Shown here one piece after another: positions 1,491 through 33,655 of a stretch of DNA of 64,000 bases (the first letter of the stretch is position 1; each line of letters opens with the position of its first letter). The DNA comes from an uncultured Mycoplasmatota bacterium (GTDB lineage: Bacteria > Bacillota_I > Bacilli_A > RF39 > UBA660), in NCBI GenBank assembly GCA_947652325.1, contig CANTCQ010000007.1, positions 3,160-67,159 on the forward strand. The letters are read 5' to 3'. Below the pieces are notes generated by a model. The model worked only from the letters and a program-made list of their open reading frames with translations, did not search any database and had not been told where the DNA came from. The position numbers were made by a program, and so were the translations under genes.

Positions 1491-3602
1491 TTATTTTTCT
1501 TTTACAAAAATCATAAAAGAATTTTCTTGGCAATCTACAACTAAAGTATCATTAAATTTCACTTTATCTTCCAAAATTAAATTGGCAAGTAAATTTTCTA
1601 CATTTTTGGTTACATACCTTTTAATGGGACGTGCTCCGTAATTTTTATCATAAGATTCTTCTATAATTTTTTCTCGAGCAGGATTAGTAAGTTCAACATG
1701 AATATTACTTGGCACCAGACGTACCTCGATTTCTGAAATAATCTTATCCAAAATATCATTTACAACTTCTTTTGTAAGAGATTTAAAAATAATGATTTCG
1801 TCAATTCGATTAATAAATTCAGGTCGAAATGTTCTTTTTAGTTCATCCATAACCAAATTTTCACTATTTTTTTGCTCTTCTAAAATGTATTCACTACCTA
1901 AATTGCTTGTCATTATAATAATAGTATTTTTAAAATCAACTACTCTACCTTGACTATCTGTAATTCTTCCATCATCTAAAATTTGTAATAAAATATTGAA
2001 TACATCACGATGTGCTTTTTCGATTTCATCAAATAAAACAATCGAAAATGGATTTCTTCTTACGGCTTCGGTTAGTTGCCCCCCTTCATCATATCCAACA
2101 TATCCTGGAGGAGCTCCTACTAAGCGGCTAACATTAAACGATTCCATGTATTCTGAGCAATCAATCCTTACCATATGTCTTTCATCATCAAATAATTCAT
2201 TGGCTAAGCTTTTTGCAACTTCCGTCTTACCTACTCCAGTAGGTCCTAAAAAAATGAAGGAACCAATAGGGCGATTTGGGTCTTTAATGCCACTTCTTGC
2301 TCTTTTAATTGCTTCTGAAACAAGTGTTAAAGCTTCATCTTGTCCTTTAACACGTACTTTTAAACGTTCTTCCAAATGGAGCAACTTTTCTTTTTCACCA
2401 CTTACCAATTTAGAAACAGGAATATTGGTCCATTTTGATACAGTAGATGCTATATCTTCATCACTTACAATGTCAGAAAGCATTGAACTTGTCATATTCT
2501 TTCTTAAACTTTCCAATTCACGCTCTAAGTCTGGAATCACTCCATGACGCAATTTCGCACTTGTCTCCAAATCATAATTATTTTCAGCCATCGATAATTT
2601 GTGGCGAGCATTTTCTAATTCTTCTTTTTTATTACTTATTTTCTCATTAACACTTTTTTCTTCTTCCCATTTTCCTCGAAGCTCACTCTCTTTTGTTTTT
2701 AAGATTTCTAATTCTTCTTTAATTTTTTCAAGTCGTTGTTTTGATAATTCATCACGCTCTTTTTTTAATGCTTCTCGTTCAATTTCCAAACGCATAATGT
2801 CTCTAGTTAAACTATCTAGTTCTACTGGCACAGAATCCATTTGCATCTTAATTGTAGCACATGCTTCATCGACCAAATCAATTGCTTTATCTGGTAAAAA
2901 ACGGTCTGTTATATAACGGTCACTAAGTGTTGCTGCAGCAACTAAAGCATTGTCTTTAATATTTACTTTATGATATACTTCAAATCTTTCTTTTAATCCT
3001 CTTAAAATTGTAATGGTATCCATTACATTTGGTTCACTCACCTTCACTTTTTGCAAACGTCTTTCAAGTGCTCCATCTTTTTCAATATACTTACGATATT
3101 CATTTAAAGTAGTCGCACCAATTAATTTAATTTCTCCACGTGCCAGCATGGGTTTTAACATATTACCAGCATCCATGGCACCATTTTCTCCTGCACCCAC
3201 TATCATATGAATTTCATCGATAAACATAATAATGTCTCCATTACTCTCTTTTACAGTTTTTAAAACGGATTTTAATCTCTCTTCAAATTCTCCACGATAT
3301 TTCGCTCCAGCAACGAGTGCTCCCATATCAAGCTCCCAAATTTTCTTATTCTTTAAACTATTAGGAACATCACCAGCTACAATCCGTTCTGCAAGACCCT
3401 CTACAATTGCAGTCTTTCCAACACCAGGTTCTCCAATCAATACGGGATTATTTTTTGTTTTTCGAGACAAAATACGAATAACATCTCGTATTTCAGAATC
3501 CCTCCCAATAACAGGGTCTAATTTATTATCTAAAACACTTTGTACTATATCACGACCATATTTTTCAAGCACATTTTCTACTTCTTCTTGATTATTATAC
3601 AT
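1491..3602 (-). CDS. clpB: ClpB-type AAA+ disaggregase that lacks the N-terminal substrate domain. NBD1, the coiled-coil M-domain and NBD2 are present.
   Basis: Two Walker A motifs ([16 protein letters not shown]), a long coiled-coil middle domain and a C-terminal D2 small domain. The likely start is MYNNQEE at 3602, preceded by GGAGGG. The ORF-track start at 3653 would lie inside the promoter. Confidence 0.85.
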
Positions 3603-5248: not shown

Positions 5249-6556
5249 TTAAAATGGCATTTTCATGTTTCCAGAACTTACCATTTTCATCATTTTTTTC
5301 ATTTCTTCAAACTGTTTTAACAGTTTGTTTACCTCTTCAACACTTCTTCCACTTCCTTTTGCAATCCTTTGTTTTCGAGTAGCTTTTAATATTTCTGGAT
5401 GATGTCTTTCATAAGGAGTCATAGATAAAATGATGGCTTCTACATGGGCCATATCTTTTGGATTAATGTTGACATTATTGATTCCTAGTTTTCTCGCTTG
5501 AGGAAGCATTTTTAAAATATTTTCTAAAGGACCTAACTTTTTAATTTGTTTTAAAGTAGCTAAAAAATCTTCTAAATCAAATGTTCCTTTTTTCATTTTT
5601 TTAGCTGTATCCAAAGCTTCTTCTTCACTTATAATATCGTTAACTTTGTCTGCAATGGATAAAATATCACCCATATCTAAGATTCGGTTGGCCATCCGCT
5701 CTGGAAAAAATTCTGATAAGCCATCTAACTTTTCACTATCCCCAACAAACTTAATAGGAATATTGGTTAAATGTCTAACCGATAAAGCCACTCCCCCTTT
5801 TGTATTTCCATCTAATTTGGTAAGAATGGTTCCTGTTAAAGAAAGAGCTTCATTAAATCCATTGATGACATTTATTGCATCTTGTCCCATCATGGCATCA
5901 ATGACAAGTAAAGTTTCATGAGGATTAATTGTACTTGAAATATCTTTTAACTCTTGCATCAACGCTACATCAATTTGTAAACGACCTGCTGTATCAATGA
6001 TAATATAATCATGTTTTTTTTCTTTAGCAAAATCTAGAGCATCCAAAACAATTTGAACGGGAGCAATTTTTCCTTCTGTAAAAACTGTAATTCCTAAGCT
6101 TTTTCCAATCGTTTCCAACTGTTCTATGGCTGCAGGTCTATATATATCGCAAGCGACAAGAAGTGGATTCTTTGCTTGTTTCTTTCTTAAAAAATTAGCA
6201 AGCTTTCCGGCAGTTGTTGTCTTACCACTTCCTTGTAATCCTACAAGCATTAAAATTGTGGGGTTTTTACTTGTCTCAAGTGGCACAAAGTCTCCACCTA
6301 GTAAGCTTACAAGTTCATCTTTTACTAGTTTTATAAATAACTCATCTGGTTTTAAACTTTTTCCTACTTCTGCTCCTATTGCTTTTTCTTTAATACTTGC
6401 AATGAATTCTTTTACCACAACATAATTAACATCCGCTTCCAATAGAGCCATTCTTATCTCACGTAGAGCATCACTAATATTTTCTTCCGTAATACGACCC
6501 ATTCCTCGAATATTTTTAATAGCATTTGAAAGTCTATCTCCCATGTATTCGAACAT
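5249..6556 (-). CDS. ffh: Signal recognition particle protein Ffh.
   Basis: GLQGSGKTTT SRP54 GTPase motifs and a Met-rich C-terminal M-domain. Confidence 0.95.
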   Translation of the reverse strand: MFEYMGDRLSNAIKNIRGMGRITEENISDALREIRMALLEADVNYVVVKEFIASIKEKAIGAEVGKSLKPDELFIKLVKDELVSLLGGDFVPLETSKNPTILMLVGLQGSGKTTTAGKLANFLRKKQAKNPLLVACDIYRPAAIEQLETIGKSLGITVFTEGKIAPVQIVLDALDFAKEKKHDYIIIDTAGRLQIDVALMQELKDISSTINPHETLLVIDAMMGQDAINVINGFNEALSLTGTILTKLDGNTKGGVALSVRHLTNIPIKFVGDSEKLDGLSEFFPERMANRILDMGDILSIADKVNDIISEEEALDTAKKMKKGTFDLEDFLATLKQIKKLGPLENILKMLPQARKLGINNVNINPKDMAHVEAIILSMTPYERHHPEILKATRKQRIAKGSGRSVEEVNKLLKQFEEMKKMMKMVSSGNMKMPF

Positions 6557-24362: not shown

Positions 24363-24439
24363 GGCGCTGTAGCTCAGTTGGCTAGAGCAACCGGTTCATA
24401 CCCGGTAGGTCGAGAGTTCGAATCTCCCCGGCGCTACCA
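24363..24439 (+). tRNA. tRNA-Met (anticodon CAT), elongator type.
   Basis: Cloverleaf: acceptor GGCGCUG/CGGCGCU, D-arm GCUC..GAGC, anticodon loop UUCAUAC, T-loop GUUCGAAUC, encoded CCA. Close to the B. subtilis elongator tRNA-Met. Confidence 0.85.
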
Positions 24440-25816: not shown

Positions 25817-26758
25817 TTATTTATCTAACCAATAACTGTCTTCTTCGATATTTCTGAAAACATTTTCTTTTTCTTTAGAGTCTGTTGAAACTTTATTAAA
25901 TGTACTTTCAACCGCCTGCTCCATATTGGTATTTCTCTTTGGTAAATCTGCCATTTTAGGAAGTTCAAATTGAGGTCTTGTAGGAGTAATTGTTCTTCTT
26001 GGAATTGATTCTGTTTTTTTATCTTCTTGTATGTTCTTTTCCTCATTATTTAAATATACCGAGCTAAATATGCTAGAAGATGGCATTTTTTTAATAGTCT
26101 CTTCTTTTCTTAAATCTTCTGTACTCGGAAATATATGTAAATCATTTTCAGTTTGTGTATCTCTCCTATTATTTTCTAAAGGTTCTTCTATAATAGAAAT
26201 ATTTTCTTCTACCGAATCATATTTATTTAAAACTTCTTCAATGCTTTGTTCTTTTTCTTCATAAAGAGGTATATTATATTCAGGCTCTTCTAAAATGCTT
26301 TTTTCAAAAACAGTTGGTTCTTCTTGAATACTGTATTCTTTATTATATAATGAACTTTTATTTTCTGGTAGAGTTTCTTTTATTTCTCTAAATGTATCAG
26401 ATATTTCGCTTGGAGGATATTCTTCCATTTCTACTTGATTTATATCCTCGTTATTATTTGTTAAAGAAATAGTTCCTAAGTCTTCTTCTTTTAAGCCTAT
26501 TGGTTCTAAAGATATCTCTTCTACTACTTTTTCTTCTTCTAAAGGTTGGTTTGTAGGTAGTATTTTTTGCTTTTCTTCTAAAGAATTTAGTATTTTTGCA
26601 TTTTCTTCTACATTATTCATCATTTCTGTATTTCTAGCTTTCTCATCTTTTTTTCCAAAAAATAAAATAATTAAAAATGAAAAAGCCAAAACGGTAATTA
26701 CTATAAATAAACCTATTCCAAAATAGTTATTGCTATAAAGTTTGTATAGAAATTCCAT
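25817..26758 (-). CDS. Membrane-anchored acidic low-complexity protein (E/P/S-rich).
   Basis: N-terminal TM helix YFGIGLFIVITVLAFSFLIILFF followed by ~270 aa of acidic low-complexity sequence. Confidence 0.5.
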   Translation of the reverse strand: MEFLYKLYSNNYFGIGLFIVITVLAFSFLIILFFGKKDEKARNTEMMNNVEENAKILNSLEEKQKILPTNQPLEEEKVVEEISLEPIGLKEEDLGTISLTNNNEDINQVEMEEYPPSEISDTFREIKETLPENKSSLYNKEYSIQEEPTVFEKSILEEPEYNIPLYEEKEQSIEEVLNKYDSVEENISIIEEPLENNRRDTQTENDLHIFPSTEDLRKEETIKKMPSSSIFSSVYLNNEEKNIQEDKKTESIPRRTITPTRPQFELPKMADLPKRNTNMEQAVESTFNKVSTDSKEKENVFRNIEEDSYWLDK

Positions 26759-26863: not shown

Positions 26864-27073
26864 CTACATATATTTTGTCATTTGCTTCATTACTTGGTTT
26901 ACTTGTTTTTGACTTGGTTTTCTTCCCATACTACTCATCATAACTTCAATCATTTTCTCATTGATTGGAGGATTTTTTTTCATATATTTTTTCATTACAA
27001 ATCTAGCACCAAAAAAACCGATTATAAGCCCCACAAGAAGGCCAATTCCAATTAATATGATATCATGAAACAT
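26864..27073 (-). CDS. yneF: UPF0154 small membrane protein YneF.
   Basis: GFFGARFVMKKYMKKNPPINEKM...MGRKPSQKQVNQVMKQM closely matches the YneF family. Syntenic with tkt. Confidence 0.85.
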   Translation of the reverse strand: MFHDIILIGIGLLVGLIIGFFGARFVMKKYMKKNPPINEKMIEVMMSSMGRKPSQKQVNQVMKQMTKYM

Positions 27074-27116
27074 TTTGTTTCCTCCTTTTTCTTATTTTAC
27101 TAAAAATTATCCTTTT

Positions 27117-27539
27117 TCACAAGTTTGTTGTTAGTTTTTCTAACCAAAAATAATCTTTATTTTCAAAATCACATAAAAAGAGATTTTCCAATTCTTCCAA
27201 ATCTTGTAAAAAAGTTGGGCGAATGATTGTACTTTTTAAAAGCAAAAAATGTTGGTGAACAATTAATTTTGATTCTTCTTTTTTATATATGTTATTTATT
27301 TGATGAATATTCTTAAATTTGGTATAAAAAAAATTATCCTGGTATTTTTTGAAAAGTTTATTATCAAATTCTTTATTTCTAAATCGCTCTACCATCTTAT
27401 AAAAAAGGTCTGCTCCCCTTTTTATTTCTTCACGGTCAATATTGTAAATATAAGAAAGCATTTTAAATAAATGATAAGGATTGTTTTTTGTTAAATGAGC
27501 ATATTCTTCTTTGATTTTAAAAATATAGAAGGTACGCAT
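27117..27539 (-). CDS. sirA: SirA-like (YneE) sporulation inhibitor of replication, tentative.
   Basis: Position between tkt and yneF as in B. subtilis. N-terminus RTFYIFKIKEEYAH resembles the SirA N-terminus; weak similarity otherwise. Confidence 0.45.
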   Translation of the reverse strand: MRTFYIFKIKEEYAHLTKNNPYHLFKMLSYIYNIDREEIKRGADLFYKMVERFRNKEFDNKLFKKYQDNFFYTKFKNIHQINNIYKKEESKLIVHQHFLLLKSTIIRPTFLQDLEELENLFLCDFENKDYFWLEKLTTNL

Positions 27540-27602
27540 AAGCATCACCATATTTAGTATATAAGAAAAAAAAACTTATTTTGTCGAAAAAAAGCGAAAA
27601 AT

Positions 27603-29588
27603 TTACTTTTCTAAAAATAATCTTGCTACTTTCATTTTTATGGTTTCATAATCAAAACCACATTTTTTCAAAACTTCTTCTGGTTTACCACTATAACCAA
27701 AATCATTAACTCCTATAATATATTTTTCATTGTTTACAAATAATCCCCAATTCATTTTATGACTTGGTTCTATGACAAGTGTCCGAATATTTTTTGGTAA
27801 TACTCCATTTTGATACGCTTTGTCTGTTTTTAAAAACAATTCTTGACTGGGCATGCTAACCACTCGAATATCTAAATTTTCTTTTTTTATTTCTTCCTTA
27901 ATTTGCATTGCTGTTAAAACTTCTGTTCCTGTTGCTATAATGATACCATCAAGTCTTTTTTCTTCTTTTCCCAATATATATGCACCTGCGGCAACTAATT
28001 TAGGATTCGAATTGGGTATTTTGGGCATTTTCTTTTTACTAATAATTAAGTTAATTGGCTTTTTATTTTTGGCAATGTATTCCCAACATCCCAAAACTTC
28101 ATTAAAATCGCATGGCCGAAAAGTTACCATATTGGGAATACTGCGAAGGGTAAGTATTTGTTCTATTGGTTCATGAGTAGGCCCATCTTCCCCTATCGAA
28201 ATAGAATCATGTGTAAAAATATAAGTGATGGGTAAATTCATTAATGCACTCATCCGCATAGAGGGCTTTAAGTAATCACTAAATGCAAGCATTGTACTAC
28301 AATATGTTTTTAAACCAAGCATAGATAACCCATTTAAAATTCCTGCCATTGCTTGCTCTCGAACTCCAAAGTTTATGTTTCTTCCTAAAGGATATTCTGC
28401 AGAATTTATATGAGTATTATCAATATAAGCTTTTGTAGAAGAGGCTAAATCGGCACTTCCACCAAGTAATAAGTCAGTTTTAGAAGCTATTAAATTTAAA
28501 ATTTTATGATTAGTCATTCGCATTTCTTCTTGATAAGTATCATTTACACGATAATTTAGACTTTCAAAAGGAACTATAATTTCTTTATTTAGTAAGGCTC
28601 GAAGTACATACATCAGTTTATCATTACCAGAAGTTTTCATTTTATTAAAATAAGAAATATGGTCTTTGTATTTTTGCTCTACTCTATCTTTTATTAAATT
28701 CCTTACATGTACTACTGTATCTTTTCTTACTTCAAAAGGAGCAATGGTTACATTTAATTTTCTTTTAATAGCAAAAATATCATCATCACTTAGGGGGGTT
28801 CCATGAACAACACTTTTGTTTTCGTACATACTATCTTTCCCTAAAATCGTATTAAAAATAATAAGAGATGGTTTTTTACTTTTTTTAGCAGCGGTTATGG
28901 CTTTATCAATGGCTTTTAAATTCGTACCATCTTTTACTGTATCTACATAAAATCCCATGGCTTCAAAGCACATTTCTATGTCTTCTAAAAAGCAAGTATC
29001 GATACTTCCATCATTGGTCATTTTATTACAATCATATAAAATTATAAGTTTTTCTAATTTTTGAGTTCCTGCAAAAGACGTAGCTTCATAAGAGATACCT
29101 TCCATTAAATCACCATCACCACATAAAACATAAGTGCGATAGTCAATTAAATTTTGCGTTTCTTCTTCTTTTTTTATATATGATTCTATATATCTTTCTC
29201 CAAGGGCAAAACCTACAGCATTTGCAATTCCTTGTCCAAGAGCTCCGGTTGTCATATCTACTCCTGGAGTTACTCCATATTCAGGATGTCCTGGACATTT
29301 CGAATCGATGCTTCTAAATTGTTTTAAATCCTCTTTTGTTATATTATATCCACATAAATGAAGTGTCGCATATAAAAGAGCTGAACCATGTCCAGCGGAC
29401 AAAACAAAACGGTCACGATTTATCCATTCAGGATTTTCTGGATTAATCATTAAATGTTTTGCATATAAAGTATAAATGATAGGAGCGGACGATAAAACAA
29501 TACCTGGATGTCCACTTTTAGCAGTACTTATCATGTCTAAAGCAAGTGCTTTTATTTCACTTACAGCATTGGTATCGTTTATATTCAT
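27603..29588 (-). CDS. tkt: Transketolase.
   Basis: TPP-binding motif GHPG near the N-terminus, GDGDLMEG, and a transketolase C-terminal domain. Start chosen at MNINDTNAV. Confidence 0.9.
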   Translation of the reverse strand: MNINDTNAVSEIKALALDMISTAKSGHPGIVLSSAPIIYTLYAKHLMINPENPEWINRDRFVLSAGHGSALLYATLHLCGYNITKEDLKQFRSIDSKCPGHPEYGVTPGVDMTTGALGQGIANAVGFALGERYIESYIKKEEETQNLIDYRTYVLCGDGDLMEGISYEATSFAGTQKLEKLIILYDCNKMTNDGSIDTCFLEDIEMCFEAMGFYVDTVKDGTNLKAIDKAITAAKKSKKPSLIIFNTILGKDSMYENKSVVHGTPLSDDDIFAIKRKLNVTIAPFEVRKDTVVHVRNLIKDRVEQKYKDHISYFNKMKTSGNDKLMYVLRALLNKEIIVPFESLNYRVNDTYQEEMRMTNHKILNLIASKTDLLLGGSADLASSTKAYIDNTHINSAEYPLGRNINFGVREQAMAGILNGLSMLGLKTYCSTMLAFSDYLKPSMRMSALMNLPITYIFTHDSISIGEDGPTHEPIEQILTLRSIPNMVTFRPCDFNEVLGCWEYIAKNKKPINLIISKKKMPKIPNSNPKLVAAGAYILGKEEKRLDGIIIATGTEVLTAMQIKEEIKKENLDIRVVSMPSQELFLKTDKAYQNGVLPKNIRTLVIEPSHKMNWGLFVNNEKYIIGVNDFGYSGKPEEVLKKCGFDYETIKMKVARLFLEK

Positions 29589-29908
29589 ATTATCCCTACC
29601 TATTCTTTTCCTATTAAGTATAACAAAAAAAAAAGAAAGTCGCAAACTTAACTCTTTTATTTTTTATAAAAAATCAAATATTTTTAATAGCACTTATCTT
29701 TTTTTGTATTTACTCTAATATTTATTGGATATTTACCCTGATTTTATTTTCTAGTTCTTTTGCGTATTTTACTAATTCATCATTATACCTAAAAATTTGC
29801 TATATTCATACAGCAAAGCTAGAGTTTTACAACAATAATCTTAATTTCTTTTACTATCTTTATTATACTTGAAAATTTAAAAGTGCAAAGACAATTCTAA
29901 TTTTATTT

Positions 29909-31225
29909 CTATTTACTATTCAAACAGTCCTGTAAGACTAAAACTTTTTTATGTCCGATTTCTTTTGCATAAACAACATTTGTAGCATTTTCAAATTGTT
30001 CTCTTATTAAATTAAAATAACTTTCTTTGTTGGAACTTATTAATTTATATATATCTTCTACTGGAGTATTTATTAATAATTTTGGTGACAACGGGTCAAA
30101 CTCTTCTTCAAGTCTCCCATTTCTAAACTCCATTTTATTTCTAAAGGTTTCTATATTCTCACAAATAATTGCAATAAAACTATCTTTTCCAAATCTTTTT
30201 TGGATAGTTACCATAATCTCTTTTAATTCTTCACTCGTTATTTTGCCTTCACTAAAAACAGGTAAATTAAATTCTTCATTTACAAGAATTTTTCTGCGAA
30301 ATTCAGGTTTAAATGTACGTTTTTCCCAAAAATATTTAATATAGATTGATTGATTATTTTTATAAATTTCCATTGTATGATGATTTCCCTCACCTGTTCC
30401 TCCTCTAAATACTATTGCTGAATTCGTTTGACTGTCTTTTATAAAAGGATAATCTTCAACTCGTAAATTTAAAGGAAAATAATTTTCCACATCCGTATCT
30501 TTCGTATTTTCTAAACATATTCCTCTTAAGTAATTACATATATCTCTTTGCTTAAAATTATTTATTCCGAAAATAATATCATTATTTTTATAAAAAAAAT
30601 ATTTATCTTGTGAATCATTTGTTTTTATCTTATTAGATAATCCGTAAGTAAAAACTCGTTCAAAAGCTTTAGTTCCAAGCTTTTGTCCATTAAAGGAATG
30701 CCTAAAAACTTTTGTTAATAATGGTTGATTATACATATTATCATTTTCTAATATATTTTTATTGTATCTAACAGTGAACTTCTCTCCATCATTTATAAAA
30801 AAATGAATAGAATTGGGCATCTCTTTTTCAATAATTAATTCATATTTTTCTTTTATAAATGTTATTTTTGTTATAATAGGGTTATTTTCTCCAATATAAT
30901 AAAGAGCCTCTATGTTAGCATTTTTATTTTTTACTTTCGTACTAATAAAACGTGTTACACATCCGCTATAATTTAGTAAATCTGCATCTTCAGTAAATTT
31001 TCCTTCGTAAGAAGTATTGTATTTTGTATCTACTATTACTATAGAAGGACAATCATAATCTATCTTTTCTATTTTATAATCATCTTCTCTTTCTCTATCA
31101 ATTAAAATATTAAAATAAGATGCTATTTCAAATAATGTGGCTGTTCCATCCGTTCTTTCTTTTGTATAAAATTTGTGTGTTCTTCTTATAGAACGTTTTA
31201 TATATTCTATATCATTTTGTCCCAT
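29909..31225 (-). CDS. Hypothetical protein (~438 aa), last gene of the putative SOS-controlled operon divergent from lexA.
   Basis: RBS AAGAGG before MGQNDIEYIK. No recognisable domains. Confidence 0.5.
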   Translation of the reverse strand: MGQNDIEYIKRSIRRTHKFYTKERTDGTATLFEIASYFNILIDREREDDYKIEKIDYDCPSIVIVDTKYNTSYEGKFTEDADLLNYSGCVTRFISTKVKNKNANIEALYYIGENNPIITKITFIKEKYELIIEKEMPNSIHFFINDGEKFTVRYNKNILENDNMYNQPLLTKVFRHSFNGQKLGTKAFERVFTYGLSNKIKTNDSQDKYFFYKNNDIIFGINNFKQRDICNYLRGICLENTKDTDVENYFPLNLRVEDYPFIKDSQTNSAIVFRGGTGEGNHHTMEIYKNNQSIYIKYFWEKRTFKPEFRRKILVNEEFNLPVFSEGKITSEELKEIMVTIQKRFGKDSFIAIICENIETFRNKMEFRNGRLEEEFDPLSPKLLINTPVEDIYKLISSNKESYFNLIREQFENATNVVYAKEIGHKKVLVLQDCLNSK

Positions 31226-31314
31226 ATGTACCTCTTCTTTTTGTTTATATTTTATCATGTATCAACACTTATTAACAATAAAAAATTGTATCAAAGAAGA
31301 TACATGTTTTCTTA

Positions 31315-31647
31315 TTATATCCATTTGGCAAGTGTTCCATTTAGAACCATTTCTTTTTCGGTTAAGGCATCAAATAAATTAATATTTAAACTATTACAAA
31401 TCGAAACAAGTACGAGGAATATGTCAGCAATTTTGGACTCAGAATTTTTATAATTTTCTTCTTTAATCGAAACACGTACTTCACGCCCTAATTCTATTAC
31501 ATTAAAGAATAAACGGAACATTTCACTTGCTATATCTTTTTTATTAAATGTATTTACATTTATTTTTTCTTCTACGTAAGCTTGTATTAAATCCAGGCTA
31601 TCTTCACGTGATAATTTGTTTAGTAATTCTTCTTTTTTTATATTCAT
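31315..31647 (-). CDS. MazG-like all-alpha NTP pyrophosphohydrolase domain protein (110 aa), tentative.
   Basis: Small helical protein with an E-rich central helix (FNVIELGREV) and an IADIFLVL...NINLFDA pattern resembling MazG/YpjD-type house-cleaning NTPases. Confidence 0.4.
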   Translation of the reverse strand: MNIKKEELLNKLSREDSLDLIQAYVEEKINVNTFNKKDIASEMFRLFFNVIELGREVRVSIKEENYKNSESKIADIFLVLVSICNSLNINLFDALTEKEMVLNGTLAKWI

Positions 31648-31650
31648 TAT

Positions 31651-31800
31651 TTAATCCTCCATTCCTATTGCAACAATCGTATTGTTGTTTTTTTCTATTT
31701 CATTTAGATGTCTAAATCTGGCATTTAGTATAAATACCCCAAAAACGATAACCGAGTAAAGAAAAATTGCTCCACTATATTTTGTTATTAATTTTTTCAT
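31651..31800 (-). CDS. Small single-pass membrane protein (50 aa), first gene divergent from lexA. It is a candidate SOS cell-division inhibitor analogue.
   Basis: RBS AGAGGGA 7 nt before ATG. MKKLITKYSGAIFLYSVIVFGVFILNARF... has one TM helix. It sits in the genomic position of yneA/sosA. Confidence 0.5.
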   Translation of the reverse strand: MKKLITKYSGAIFLYSVIVFGVFILNARFRHLNEIEKNNNTIVAIGMED

Positions 31801-31860
31801 ATACATTCCCTCTTTCTGAATCCACTTTAACACGTATATTTGTTCGTGTCAATATCTTTA

Positions 31861-31874
31861 TGAACATTTGTTTG
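31861..31874. promoter_or_regulatory. Candidate LexA (Cheo) box between the divergent lexA and SOS operon promoters.
   Basis: tGAACATTTGTTTG versus the Firmicute consensus CGAACRNRYGTTCG (12/14). It overlaps the lexA -35 region. Confidence 0.45.
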
Positions 31875-31922
31875 ACTTTTTACATTTGCTATGATACGAT
31901 GATTATGGAGGTTACGTTTAAA

Positions 31923-32540
31923 ATGAAAGAACTAACTACAAAACAAACGGAAGTCTTAAATTTTATTAAAAAATATACAGCTATGCATGGGTATCCCCCT
32001 GCTATTCGAGAAATTTGTGCTGGACTTGGTTTATCTAGTCCTGCAACGGTTCATGCTCATGTTAAAAAGCTAGAAGAAGCTGGAGTTATTAAAACGAGTA
32101 ATAACAAATTTAGAACGATTGAAATCTTAGTGGAAAATGAATATGTAGAAAAAGAAGAAGATGTTGTAAAAATTCCTCTTTTGGGAAAAGTTACAGCAGG
32201 AAGTCCAATCGAGGCTATTGAACAACCCAATGAATTTTTTAATATTCCTGCTTCTTTGGTTCCTAGAAAAGAAGTTGTATTTGCTTTACATGTAAGTGGT
32301 GAATCGATGATTAACAAAGGAATATTCGATGGAGATTATGTAATAGTACAAAAGCAAAAGGTAGCTCGTAATGGCGATGTCGTTGTTGCCATGACGGAAG
32401 ATAATGAAGTTACTTTAAAAACGTTTTATAAAGAAAAAGATTATGTACGCTTGCAACCTGAAAATGATACAATGGCTCCAATTATTTTAGCAAATTGTAC
32501 TATTTTAGGAAAAGCGATTGGTTTATATCGACAATTTTAA
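31923..32540 (+). CDS. lexA: LexA repressor.
   Basis: N-terminal wHTH and C-terminal S24 peptidase with the cleavage-site AG and catalytic S...K (VSGESMIN). Start at MKELTTKQTEV after GGAGG. Confidence 0.9.
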   Translation: MKELTTKQTEVLNFIKKYTAMHGYPPAIREICAGLGLSSPATVHAHVKKLEEAGVIKTSNNKFRTIEILVENEYVEKEEDVVKIPLLGKVTAGSPIEAIEQPNEFFNIPASLVPRKEVVFALHVSGESMINKGIFDGDYVIVQKQKVARNGDVVVAMTEDNEVTLKTFYKEKDYVRLQPENDTMAPIILANCTILGKAIGLYRQF

Positions 32541-32590
32541 AAAAGACACTATTAAGAAAAACTCGTATGTTATTTTTGATGCGAAAGTTT

Positions 32591-33655
32591 TTAGAGCCCA
32601 TATCTTCGATTAAATTTTTCTATTTGAGATAATCTTTTCTTTTGTAAAGTATACGATTGTTCTGTTTGGCTTTGTTCTTGATATGTTGTTTCATTATAAT
32701 TTATCAAATTTTCTTTTCTTAACTCTTCTTCATTATTAATGTATCCAAAAGTTACATTTCGATTTTTTAGTAAATTATACTGTGCTTCACTTAGTAAGTA
32801 TATTTTTTCACCAAAAAATATTTGTTTTAAATATACTGTGCTTATATATCCTTTTATAAAATTTAAATTTATTTCTACTGCTGTTGGAAACGAGGCATTT
32901 ATATCTGATAATGAAGGAACATTGACATGTAAAGTTTTGTTATGCGCATTTATCAAATATTTGTGGGAATGTCCATGAAGTACAATAGGAGCGGTTGGAA
33001 GTAATACTTTTCCACCTAATATATGATGATAAAGTAATATGTTATCATTTTTTATATTTATAATTGTATTATTAAATCCACCAATAATAATATCTTGGCG
33101 ATAACTTTTTGCAATTTCAATAATATTTTGTGCACTACTTTGTAAAGCACTTTTATCATGGTCTCCTGCTACTCCAAATGTTAAAATATTTTTATCAAAT
33201 GGATAATCCTTAATAAAATGTTCTATTTGTAAAAAGGTGTCTTCTATGTTTTGTTGTGTTTTTGAAAAAGTACCATCTATCAAATCACCACAACAGAAAA
33301 TAATATGAATTCCATTATTTATACAATAATCAAATGCTTTATCTAATAAATCTAATCGCTCTAAAGAACTTCCAAAATGTAAATCCGAAATTGCTAGACA
33401 TCTAAATTCTGTTTCTTTATGGGATGTAATTATATTTAATTGTTGTTTCTCATTCAACTCCTTTATTGAAAAAATAGGTTTATAAGAAATAACTCCATTA
33501 GAATAATATTTTTGTTTTAATAAGAATCCTTTATTTTTTAAATTTGTTAAATTATTAAATAGCTGTTTATTTGAAATGTTTAAAATAGAACATATTTCAT
33601 TACAGGTCTTCTTTTCCTTTAAAAGCTGTATTAATTGTGTAGTTTGGTCTGACAT
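32591..33655 (-). CDS. Fusion of an N-terminal HTH domain to a calcineurin-like metallophosphoesterase.
   Basis: N-terminal ~70 aa HTH-like (CNEICSILNISNKQLFNNLTNLKNKGFL). The phosphoesterase motifs are ISDLHFG, GDLIDG, GNHD-like GDHD and GHSH. Confidence 0.7.
   Translation of the reverse strand: MSDQTTQLIQLLKEKKTCNEICSILNISNKQLFNNLTNLKNKGFLLKQKYYSNGVISYKPIFSIKELNEKQQLNIITSHKETEFRCLAISDLHFGSSLERLDLLDKAFDYCINNGIHIIFCCGDLIDGTFSKTQQNIEDTFLQIEHFIKDYPFDKNILTFGVAGDHDKSALQSSAQNIIEIAKSYRQDIIIGGFNNTIINIKNDNILLYHHILGGKVLLPTAPIVLHGHSHKYLINAHNKTLHVNVPSLSDINASFPTAVEINLNFIKGYISTVYLKQIFFGEKIYLLSEAQYNLLKNRNVTFGYINNEEELRKENLINYNETTYQEQSQTEQSYTLQKKRLSQIEKFNRRYGL

Follow-up and report, generated by a model that had tools for sequence, protein, structure and literature searches.

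In a 64,000-nucleotide (nt) stretch of DNA from an uncultured Mycoplasmatota bacterium (positions 3,160 to 67,159 of contig CANTCQ010000007.1, assembly GCA_947652325.1), referred to here as the window, the lexA gene is faced by a divergently transcribed pair of small genes, tm49 and p110, which code for a single-pass membrane peptide and a MazG-fold protein, respectively. We consider it probable that this pair is a lineage-specific SOS checkpoint cassette divergent from lexA, and that the larger gene downstream, big438, is an unrelated cargo held in a variable slot. A preliminary description of the locus, made from its sequence before the comparisons reported here, had presented the three genes together as a non-canonical cargo between lexA and tkt. 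The three open reading frames (ORFs) do exist between lexA and tkt, on the same strand, but they are not one unit, as big438 is limited to the host species. The positions of all features are collected in Table 1.

The evidence for this separation is comparative. Using a degenerate-pattern scan with one genome per species, 24 loci with p110 relatives were recovered, 21 of them in metagenome-assembled genomes (MAGs) labelled uncultured Bacilli or 'Tenericutes' and derived from mouse and rabbit gut; the related organisms compared throughout are uncultured MAGs. When all the proteins of the window were mapped onto these and other fetched loci, the order lexA <> tm49 - p110 - (gap) - tkt - sirA - yneF (where <> marks divergent transcription) was found throughout the related loci with enough flanking sequence. 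The tm49-p110 pair is divergent from lexA in the 22 related uncultured-Bacilli loci examined (22/22), with identities to the window that range from 50 to 96% for tm49 and from 51 to 97% for p110. By contrast, big438 is missing from 21/21 loci of other species that carry tm49-p110, among them the closest relative, L015, whose p110 and tkt are 97% and 88% identical to those of the window. Since big438 is present in 9/9 contigs that encode an identical p110, which come from separate samples, and in 0/21 of the other-species loci, it is fixed in, yet specific to, the host species. tm49-p110 is a conserved, clade-wide bicistron, and big438 an unrelated, species-specific insertion.

These distributions bear directly on the possibility that tm49, p110 and big438 form one damage-induced operon, in which p110 and big438 would constitute a nucleotide-pool or defence module, as the preliminary description had suggested. 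Such an operon would agree with the common strand of the three genes, with the lack of a strong terminator between them and with their joint presence in 9/9 contigs of the host species. However, not only is big438 absent from all the other-species loci that keep tm49-p110, but its homologues were never found beside a p110 or lexA homologue, share no neighbour and have no LexA-like box upstream (see below), and the gene has a promoter of its own. Additionally, other species hold different cargo in the slot, a relic of which persists in the window, and PADLOC-DB v2 gave no match for big438 or tm49 and only a spurious one of p110 to Cas3d (E 0.01). The single operon is largely refuted by the comparative data, and we regard it as very improbable.

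Evidence for SOS control comes from the 122-bp spacer between lexA and tm49. The product of lexA scores 226.7 bits against TIGR00498 (cutoff 110.95), 115 bits against PF00717 and 70 bits against PF01726, and its translation holds the VTAG cleavage site, the Ser in GESM and the Lys in LKTF, as is proper to a LexA protein. Aligning the spacer from 23 loci revealed two long near-invariant blocks, the remaining positions being variable. The first block, GTCAAACAAATGTTC, is the reverse complement of TGAACATTTGTTTG (box 1) and is near-invariant in the 23 loci, where the lexA -35 and a TGnTAAGAT-type -10 are also conserved. The second block consists of TTGACA-CGAACAAATATACG-TGTTAAAGT, that is, the divergent tm49-p110 promoter (31852-31824) with box 2 (CGAACAAATATACG) placed between its -35 and its -10; within it, CGAACAAATATACGTG is invariant in 19/23 loci. 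This promoter is conserved in relatives and was the top promoter match across the 5.7 kb scanned (27000-32700). The consensus of the Bacillus-type LexA operator, or Cheo box, is CGAAC-N4-GTTCG, and in three of the loci (L030-L032) the box 2 site is CGAACAAATGTTTT, which reads GAAC-N4-GTTT and is nearer to the GAAC-N4-GTTC consensus. That the sequence of a promoter spacer has been kept across species in which the flanking proteins are only 50-90% identical argues for an operator. Box 1 is presumed to be the autoregulatory operator of lexA and box 2 that of the tm49-p110 operon, and LexA would be expected to bind both. A Cheo-box-like site had already been noted between the two divergent promoters; the sequence is indeed there, at 31861-31874, although it overlaps the lexA -35, and the second site, box 2, had been overlooked.

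The first gene of the cassette, tm49, appears to be under purifying selection as a protein, since substitutions among its orthologues are distributed over codon positions 1:2:3 as 1811:851:3104. The orthologues have 48-51 amino acids (aa) and follow the pattern MKK(I/L)xxKYxGAILLYSVIIxGVFxLNARFKYLNE(I/L)E, in which MKK is followed by a transmembrane (TM) segment at residues ~9-26, a conserved LNARF(K/R)(Y/H)LNE motif and, finally, a variable tail. The single hydrophobic segment (Kyte-Doolittle peak of 2.76 at residues 11-25) is preceded by MKK and, following the positive-inside rule, the predicted topology is N-in, C-out. The gene had been described as encoding a 50-aa single-TM protein with a good ribosome-binding site (RBS), of which the single TM segment and the RBS (AGAAAGAGGGA, conserved in the spacer alignment) were confirmed, while the length is 49 aa. 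Its stop codon is followed, 3 nt later, by the ATG of p110, whose GGAGG RBS lies within the final tm49 codons; because of this location, the conserved C-terminal G-(M)-E/D of the peptide may partly reflect the p110 RBS.

The SOS division inhibitors of Gram-positive bacteria are single-TM proteins of diverse sequence that co-localise with lexA, and the place directly divergent from lexA is a hallmark of these inhibitors in Firmicutes and Actinobacteria (PMC6851548). As a small single-TM protein adjacent to and divergent from lexA, tm49 belongs to this class by position. For instance, SosA of Staphylococcus aureus has 77 aa, a TM segment at residues 10-30, an external C-terminus, no LysM domain and its strongest conservation just past the TM segment (PMC6851548). 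Both sosA, which is under a LexA operator, and tm49, which has a predicted LexA-type box in its promoter, come first among the genes divergent from lexA, and the product of tm49 shares with SosA the N-terminal TM segment, the predicted external C-terminus, the lack of LysM and the peak of conservation after the membrane. Unlike sosA, tm49 is always followed by a MazG-fold gene, with which it is predicted to be co-transcribed and translationally coupled. The likeness to the YneA locus lies in the neighbours (lexA, tkt, sirA-like and yneF), in the divergent promoters with multiple LexA-type boxes and in a single-pass product of the first gene. YneA, the SOS division inhibitor of B. subtilis and Listeria, however, targets FtsW through its TM segment and needs its LysM domain for activity (PMC13396833), a domain that tm49 lacks; moreover, homologues of yneB (resolvase-like) and ynzC (DUF896) are absent from the tm49 locus, which has the degenerate MazG-fold gene in that place. 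tm49 is outside both the YneA and the SosA sequence families. By analogy of position and architecture, it would be a candidate SOS-induced division inhibitor of the YneA/SosA functional class, in agreement with the preliminary description, which had seen in it a plausible analogue of these proteins; the lexA-divergent position under a LexA-type box, an arrangement known for YneA and SosA (PMC6851548), supports that proposal.

SOS-induced small membrane toxins, such as TisB and DinQ, are known in E. coli; they are controlled by LexA, form part of type I toxin-antitoxin systems, which include antisense RNAs, and are encoded away from lexA. tm49 might instead be a membrane-damaging or depolarising toxin peptide of this type, with p110 as its cytoplasmic modulator or antitoxin. 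A very small size (49 aa), a single hydrophobic helix with a short and variable external tail, the lack of LysM or any other periplasmic effector domain, predicted LexA control and tight co-translation with a conserved cytoplasmic protein that looks non-enzymatic would all suit such a peptide. Nevertheless, tm49 is lexA-adjacent, the position that marks division inhibitors (PMC6851548), and its juxtamembrane motif parallels that of SosA. Furthermore, type I toxins are usually accompanied by an antisense RNA, and here no antisense element was detected: in the Rfam scan of the entire window the single match was a tRNA (24363-24436), with nothing in the lexA-tkt region. We find a toxin of this kind rather improbable, and the division inhibitor remains our preferred reading of tm49.

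The second gene, p110, defines a family of 90 homologues (51-100% identity; mean column identity of 68%). The protein had been called MazG-like and likened to nucleoside triphosphate (NTP) pyrophosphatases, and the homology stands while the enzymatic role has become doubtful. On its own, p110 falls short of the Pfam gathering criterion (no match to PF03819 at E <= 1), and its matches to MazG/pyrophosphatase models are sub-threshold (E 0.06). Three distant relatives with 39-43% identity were found in Clostridia/Defluviitaleaceae MAGs, and the two that were scanned, L037 and L038, pass PF03819 with 33.2 and 30.9 bits (gathering score of 22) and carry canonical LLEExGEL and ExExADV motifs. BLASTP connects p110 with these two relatives at E 9e-24 (L038, 43% identity) and 8e-19, and through them p110 can be assigned, transitively, as a true MazG homologue (PF03819; compare 2gta and 1vmg). 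It also resembles MazG/YpjD NTP pyrophosphohydrolases in size (~110 aa) and in being a helical bundle by prediction. A profile search of the PDB retrieved B. subtilis YpjD (2gta, E 0.0068). In the structural check that the preliminary description had proposed, the AlphaFold2 (AF2) model has five helices (predicted local distance difference test, pLDDT, of 75.5), and its ten best Foldseek matches in the PDB are all HisE/MazG, with probabilities of up to 0.99 but with E of 0.15 or worse and TM-scores of 0.4-0.6.

The Mg2+ ligands of this fold are E35/E38/E54/D57 in 1vmg and E119/E122/E138/D141 in Mycobacterium tuberculosis MazG (PMC2954211, PMC10014863), and the canonical four-ligand site is required for MazG activity (PMC10014863). 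These positions align to N49/E52/K72/D75 of p110, that is, two of the four ligands are replaced (Glu by Asn and Glu by Lys), and the EXXE...EXXD signature of MazG/YpjD reads N-x-x-E...K-x-x-D. Among 86 family members, position 49 is Asn in 76, Ser in 6, Tyr in 2, Asp in 1 and Leu in 1, and position 72 is Lys in 86/86. Because a Lys has replaced a metal-binding Glu and has been fixed under strong purifying selection, p110 is likely to be non-catalytic, or at least non-canonical, and probably does not work as a conventional NTP pyrophosphatase. A role in cleaning the nucleotide pool is doubtful, since two of the four metal ligands have been lost family-wide.

It could still be argued that p110 retains activity and, by means of a non-canonical site, serves as a house-cleaning NTP pyrophosphatase induced by damage, which would clear damaged or non-canonical deoxynucleoside triphosphates during the SOS response. 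The clear homology to MazG/YpjD enzymes, the label 'NTP pyrophosphatase' given to a family member in one Joint Genome Institute record, the retention of E52 and D75 together with the conserved E42 and E56, and the adjacency of ancestral relatives to rdgB would favour such an enzyme. Against it stand the requirement of MazG activity for all four ligands (PMC10014863), the Lys found in every member at one of these positions and the Asn or Ser found at another, and the failure of p110 to match PF03819. We hold this to be unlikely and, at low confidence, favour p110 as a regulatory or binding partner beside tm49. As regards the origin of the protein, the canonical relative in L038 (4391-5837) is part of an rdgB(Ham1)-mazG-metallophosphoesterase operon whose start and stop codons overlap. 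Such a nucleotide house-cleaning operon is the likely ancestral setting of the SOS-linked p110, whose context has shifted from rdgB-mazG to an SOS operon.

The mechanism that we propose would begin with the binding of LexA to two GAAC-N4-GTTY-type operators in the spacer: at box 1, over the lexA -35, it would autoregulate lexA and, at box 2, within the promoter spacer, it would repress the bicistronic tm49-p110 operon. After DNA damage, RecA-stimulated self-cleavage of LexA would de-repress the operon. tm49, inserted N-in/C-out and bearing a conserved juxtamembrane motif, would then, as the analogy with SosA and YneA suggests, join the divisome and hold back the synthesis of septal wall. p110, translationally coupled to tm49 and presumably descended from a housekeeping MazG/YpjD-type NTP pyrophosphohydrolase that lost two of its four Mg2+ ligands, would be a partner without catalytic activity, either nucleotide-binding or regulatory, and not an enzyme that cleans the nucleotide pool. 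In the host species the slot downstream holds big438, to whose expression read-through from the SOS promoter may add a damage-dependent component. A more detailed version would make p110 a MazG-fold pseudoenzyme (a cytoplasmic nucleotide sensor or protein binder) that gates, chaperones or antagonises tm49 and, separately, big438 a new fold in a mobile, single-gene cargo family with a possible function in defence; this combination is speculative, and we would not expect it to hold in full.

Several observations weigh against the proposal of an SOS checkpoint. Boxes of this type are not enriched in the window, where GAACN4GTTY has 3 matches for 3.2 expected by chance and CGAACN4GTTCG (with up to 2 mismatches) has 6 for 6.1 expected, and box 2 has just one perfect half-site (CGAAC...ATACG) in most loci. 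tm49 has no detectable sequence homology to SosA (14.3 bits and E 0.034 against NF041581, over the TM region only, for a cutoff of 60), nor does it match LysM (PF01476) at E <= 1, as a member of the YneA family would; it is also shorter than SosA (49 aa vs 77 aa), with an external part of only ~23 residues. The acidic residues that p110 retains make an atypical active site possible and, because there is no strong terminator between p110 and big438, transcripts from the SOS promoter could read through into the latter and so induce it as well. As regards the boxes, two of the six CGAACN4GTTCG matches fall 28 bp apart in the single 122-bp spacer beside lexA, for which the estimated probability by chance is ~5e-5. 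Taking these points together with the conservation and placement of the boxes, we still favour the checkpoint cassette.

Table 1. Positions of the genes and of the predicted regulatory features in the window (strand as in the sequence analysed; aa, amino acids).
Feature	Position	Strand	Description
yneF (UPF0154)	26864-27073	-	PF03672, 100.5 bits
SirA-like gene	27117-27551	-	PF10747, 24.9 bits, just below the gathering score of 26
tkt	27603-29588	-	661 aa; three transketolase Pfam domains matched
Decayed remnant of the L015 126-aa gene, 3' part	29660-29815	-	Several in-frame stops; tblastn, 38% identity with stops
Promoter-like site	29862-29889	-	TTTGCA, 16 nt, TATAAT; 10/12; in the segment common to the L015 cargo region
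big438	29909-31225	-	438 aa; cytoplasmic protein of an unannotated family
Putative promoter of big438	31249-31278	-	TTGTTA, 18 nt, TG-extended TAAAAT; 9/12 with TG
Hairpin and U-run after the p110 stop	31280-31304	-	Weak, AT-rich, possible leaky terminator; fold of 31226-31325, z = -1.27 (not significant)
p110	31315-31647	-	110 aa; MazG-fold protein with a degenerate metal site (N49..E52 / K72..D75)
tm49	31651-31800	-	49 aa; single-pass membrane peptide; first gene divergent from lexA
Putative tm49-p110 promoter	31824-31852	-	TTGACA, 17 nt, TG-extended TAAAGT; 10/12 with TG; conserved in relatives
LexA-type box 2, CGAACAAATATACG	31833-31846	-	CGAAC-N4-ATACG; exactly fills the 17-nt -35/-10 spacer of the tm49 promoter
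LexA-type box 1, TGAACATTTGTTTG	31861-31874	+	GAAC-N4-GTTT; overlaps the lexA -35
Putative lexA promoter	31872-31900	+	-35 TTGACT (31872-31877), 17-nt spacer, TG-extended -10 TACGAT; consensus scan 9/12 with TG
lexA	31923-32540	+	205 aa; winged-helix-turn-helix DNA-binding domain and S24 autopeptidase domain

The third gene, big438, had been reported to encode a large protein of 449 or 438 aa with no recognisable domain. No domain match was found here either, and of the two lengths the shorter is favoured: an upstream start at 31258 would give 449 aa, some gene callers gave 438 aa, and ATG 31225 is the most likely start because a GAGG RBS lies 6 nt upstream and the homologues align from that Met. 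Most of these homologues have, like the window, a TG-extended -10 (TGnTAnAAT) ~35 nt upstream of the ATG. The scan for terminators between the genes gave none, the hairpin after p110 included. A word-based search yielded 12 relatives, and a full hidden Markov model (HMM) search 211 cluster representatives, 108 of them at E <= 1e-30; members nearly all have 400-460 aa. Searches of Pfam, NCBIfam, PHROGs and PADLOC gave no significant family match for big438, tm49 or p110, Pfam gave no consistent match on 56 diverse homologues of big438, and sequence-profile searches of the PDB with big438 gave nothing. The AF2 model, however, is confident (pLDDT of 82.9; predicted TM-score, pTM, of 0.82), with N-terminal helices, ~20 beta-strands (50-322) and a C-terminal helical bundle, and yet no fold match was found in the PDB or BFVD (TM-score < 0.3), so that the structural check advised in the preliminary description did not lead to a known fold. 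K289 is the only invariant residue in the alignment of the 56 sequences. An N-terminal 'ATLxDVAKFFNIP' stretch was considered as a helix-turn-helix (HTH) and set aside as speculation, with no HMM support.

The genomic contexts of big438 homologues, of which eight were examined, are all different. The homologue lies directly after an Abi_2 gene in L005, between lysS and a citrate transporter in L043, after mreCD in L046 and before tgt in L049, and in L013 it follows a DUF87 ATPase and a coiled-coil protein, with an integrase nearby. In L048 (1-13700), a homologue with 45% identity is found within a Firmicute conjugative type IV secretion cluster (TraG, TrbL, PrgI, VirB4-like ATPase and CHAP hydrolase), where the last two flank it and several genes around it have no Pfam match; the two remaining contexts have no informative neighbours. 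A 185-aa DnaJ-domain gene (2306-2863) was also observed near the homologue in L005. All-against-all BLAST of the neighbour proteins from the eight contexts revealed no shared neighbour, no p110 or lexA homologue was adjacent in any of the contexts examined, and no LexA-like box was found within 400 bp upstream of 11 homologues. A metagenome scan for big438 returned only 4 loci, and none was found in viral contigs. Judging from these contexts, big438 appears to be an accessory gene, mobile and solitary, that brings its own promoter and stands outside the SOS module.

Such a gene could be a stand-alone defence gene, directed against phages or other mobile genetic elements, that has settled in a permissive slot. 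Its solitary nature, own promoter, patchy distribution and varied insertion sites would be in line with this function, as would the diverse and unannotated family and the neighbours in some contexts (Abi_2, the conjugative element, and the DUF87 ATPase near an integrase). The absence of PADLOC and PHROG matches, of homologues in viral contigs, of a fold match and of any recognisable catalytic motif (K289 being the sole invariant residue), and the location of several homologues between plain housekeeping genes, point in the opposite direction. On balance, a defence function for big438 seems doubtful to us.

What the locus does reveal is turnover at the junction where big438 lies. In most loci, p110 and tkt are separated by 55-65 bp. 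The interval is 900 bp in L015, with an ORF for a 126-aa membrane protein (5775-6155), and 728 bp in L018, with a 185-aa ORF (5434-5991). In L030 it reaches 1.2 kb and codes for a J-domain protein of 344 aa (5406-6440; PF00226, 38.4 bits) that has a coiled-coil C-terminal part, and of which the L018 ORF encodes a truncated homologue (32% identity, E 3e-15). In the window, the interval between big438 and tkt is 320 bp, more than a plain spacer. It contains the decayed remnant of the 126-aa gene of L015 (Table 1): blastn aligns the window to the L015 cargo region with 79.5% identity over 337 nt, and positions 29848-29905 are 90% identical to 5702-5759 of L015, upstream of the 126-aa ORF. Thus, big438 apparently adjoins a relic of an earlier cargo gene, which indicates gene turnover, and the p110|tkt junction can be described as a variable cargo slot. 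No convincing target-site duplications or terminal inverted repeats flank big438, and the base composition of the insert is not distinct (24-26% GC, as in the flanks).

The minus-strand gene order was set out for 26.8-32.6 kb of the window. In B. subtilis, the corresponding order is lexA<>yneA-yneB-ynzC-tkt-sirA-yneF, and the synteny that had been proposed at both ends of the locus was borne out by the family matches of lexA, tkt, sirA-like and yneF. The ynzC gene corresponds to BSU17880 (PMC3814617). The SirA-like protein aligns nearly over its full length, with residues 6-138 on positions 1-137 of the 140 in the PF10747 profile, at a sub-gathering score, and its orthologues in relatives are also flagged, weakly, as SirA. 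Upstream of tkt, the leader (29589-29645, minus strand) has a conserved TG-extended -10 (TGTTATACT) and a AGGTAGGGA RBS, and an upstream element is kept in L010 and L016; because of the conserved -10 and RBS, a 680-aa ORF with a TTG start is an over-extension of the 661-aa gene. In L025, L027, L033 and L034, tkt is absent from the locus and sirA-like and yneF come straight after p110; since four related MAGs lack it there, the conserved block does not require tkt.

Two further neighbours were observed. Convergent with lexA there is a gene (32591-33655, minus strand) for a 354-aa protein with an N-terminal HTH-like region and a calcineurin-like metallophosphoesterase domain (PF12850, 34 bits). 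Its counterpart in L016 is 74% identical, and L009-L011 have in that place an unrelated 219-aa protein with no Pfam match; the position convergent with lexA seems to be another variable site flanking this gene. After yneF, a 313-aa protein (25817-26758, minus strand) has an N-terminal TM helix, a long acidic, low-complexity region rich in Glu and Asn and no family match, and relatives have counterparts of 305-326 aa in this place.

The concept of a lexA-divergent checkpoint of the YneA/SosA type is already established, and the tm49-p110 cassette would be a non-homologous counterpart of it. Gram-positive bacteria have SOS division inhibitors that are notorious for their lack of homology and are recognised chiefly through their adjacency to lexA; tm49 would add a new peptide family to them, to our knowledge the shortest so far among Firmicutes, and we know of no earlier case of an inhibitor gene that is always coupled to another conserved gene, here one for a MazG-fold protein whose metal site is disabled. 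big438, for its part, is not to be read as SOS cargo; it belongs to a large mobile family that is wholly unannotated and has a confident predicted fold with no match. The clade that hosts tm49-p110 consists of uncultured, very AT-rich gut Bacilli, for which two small genes and one promoter would offer a simple, testable system to study how a checkpoint is tuned. If the proposal is correct, p110, as a pseudoenzyme, would represent a new regulatory use of the all-alpha NTP pyrophosphatase fold, and the cassette a two-component checkpoint unlike those of YneA and SosA.

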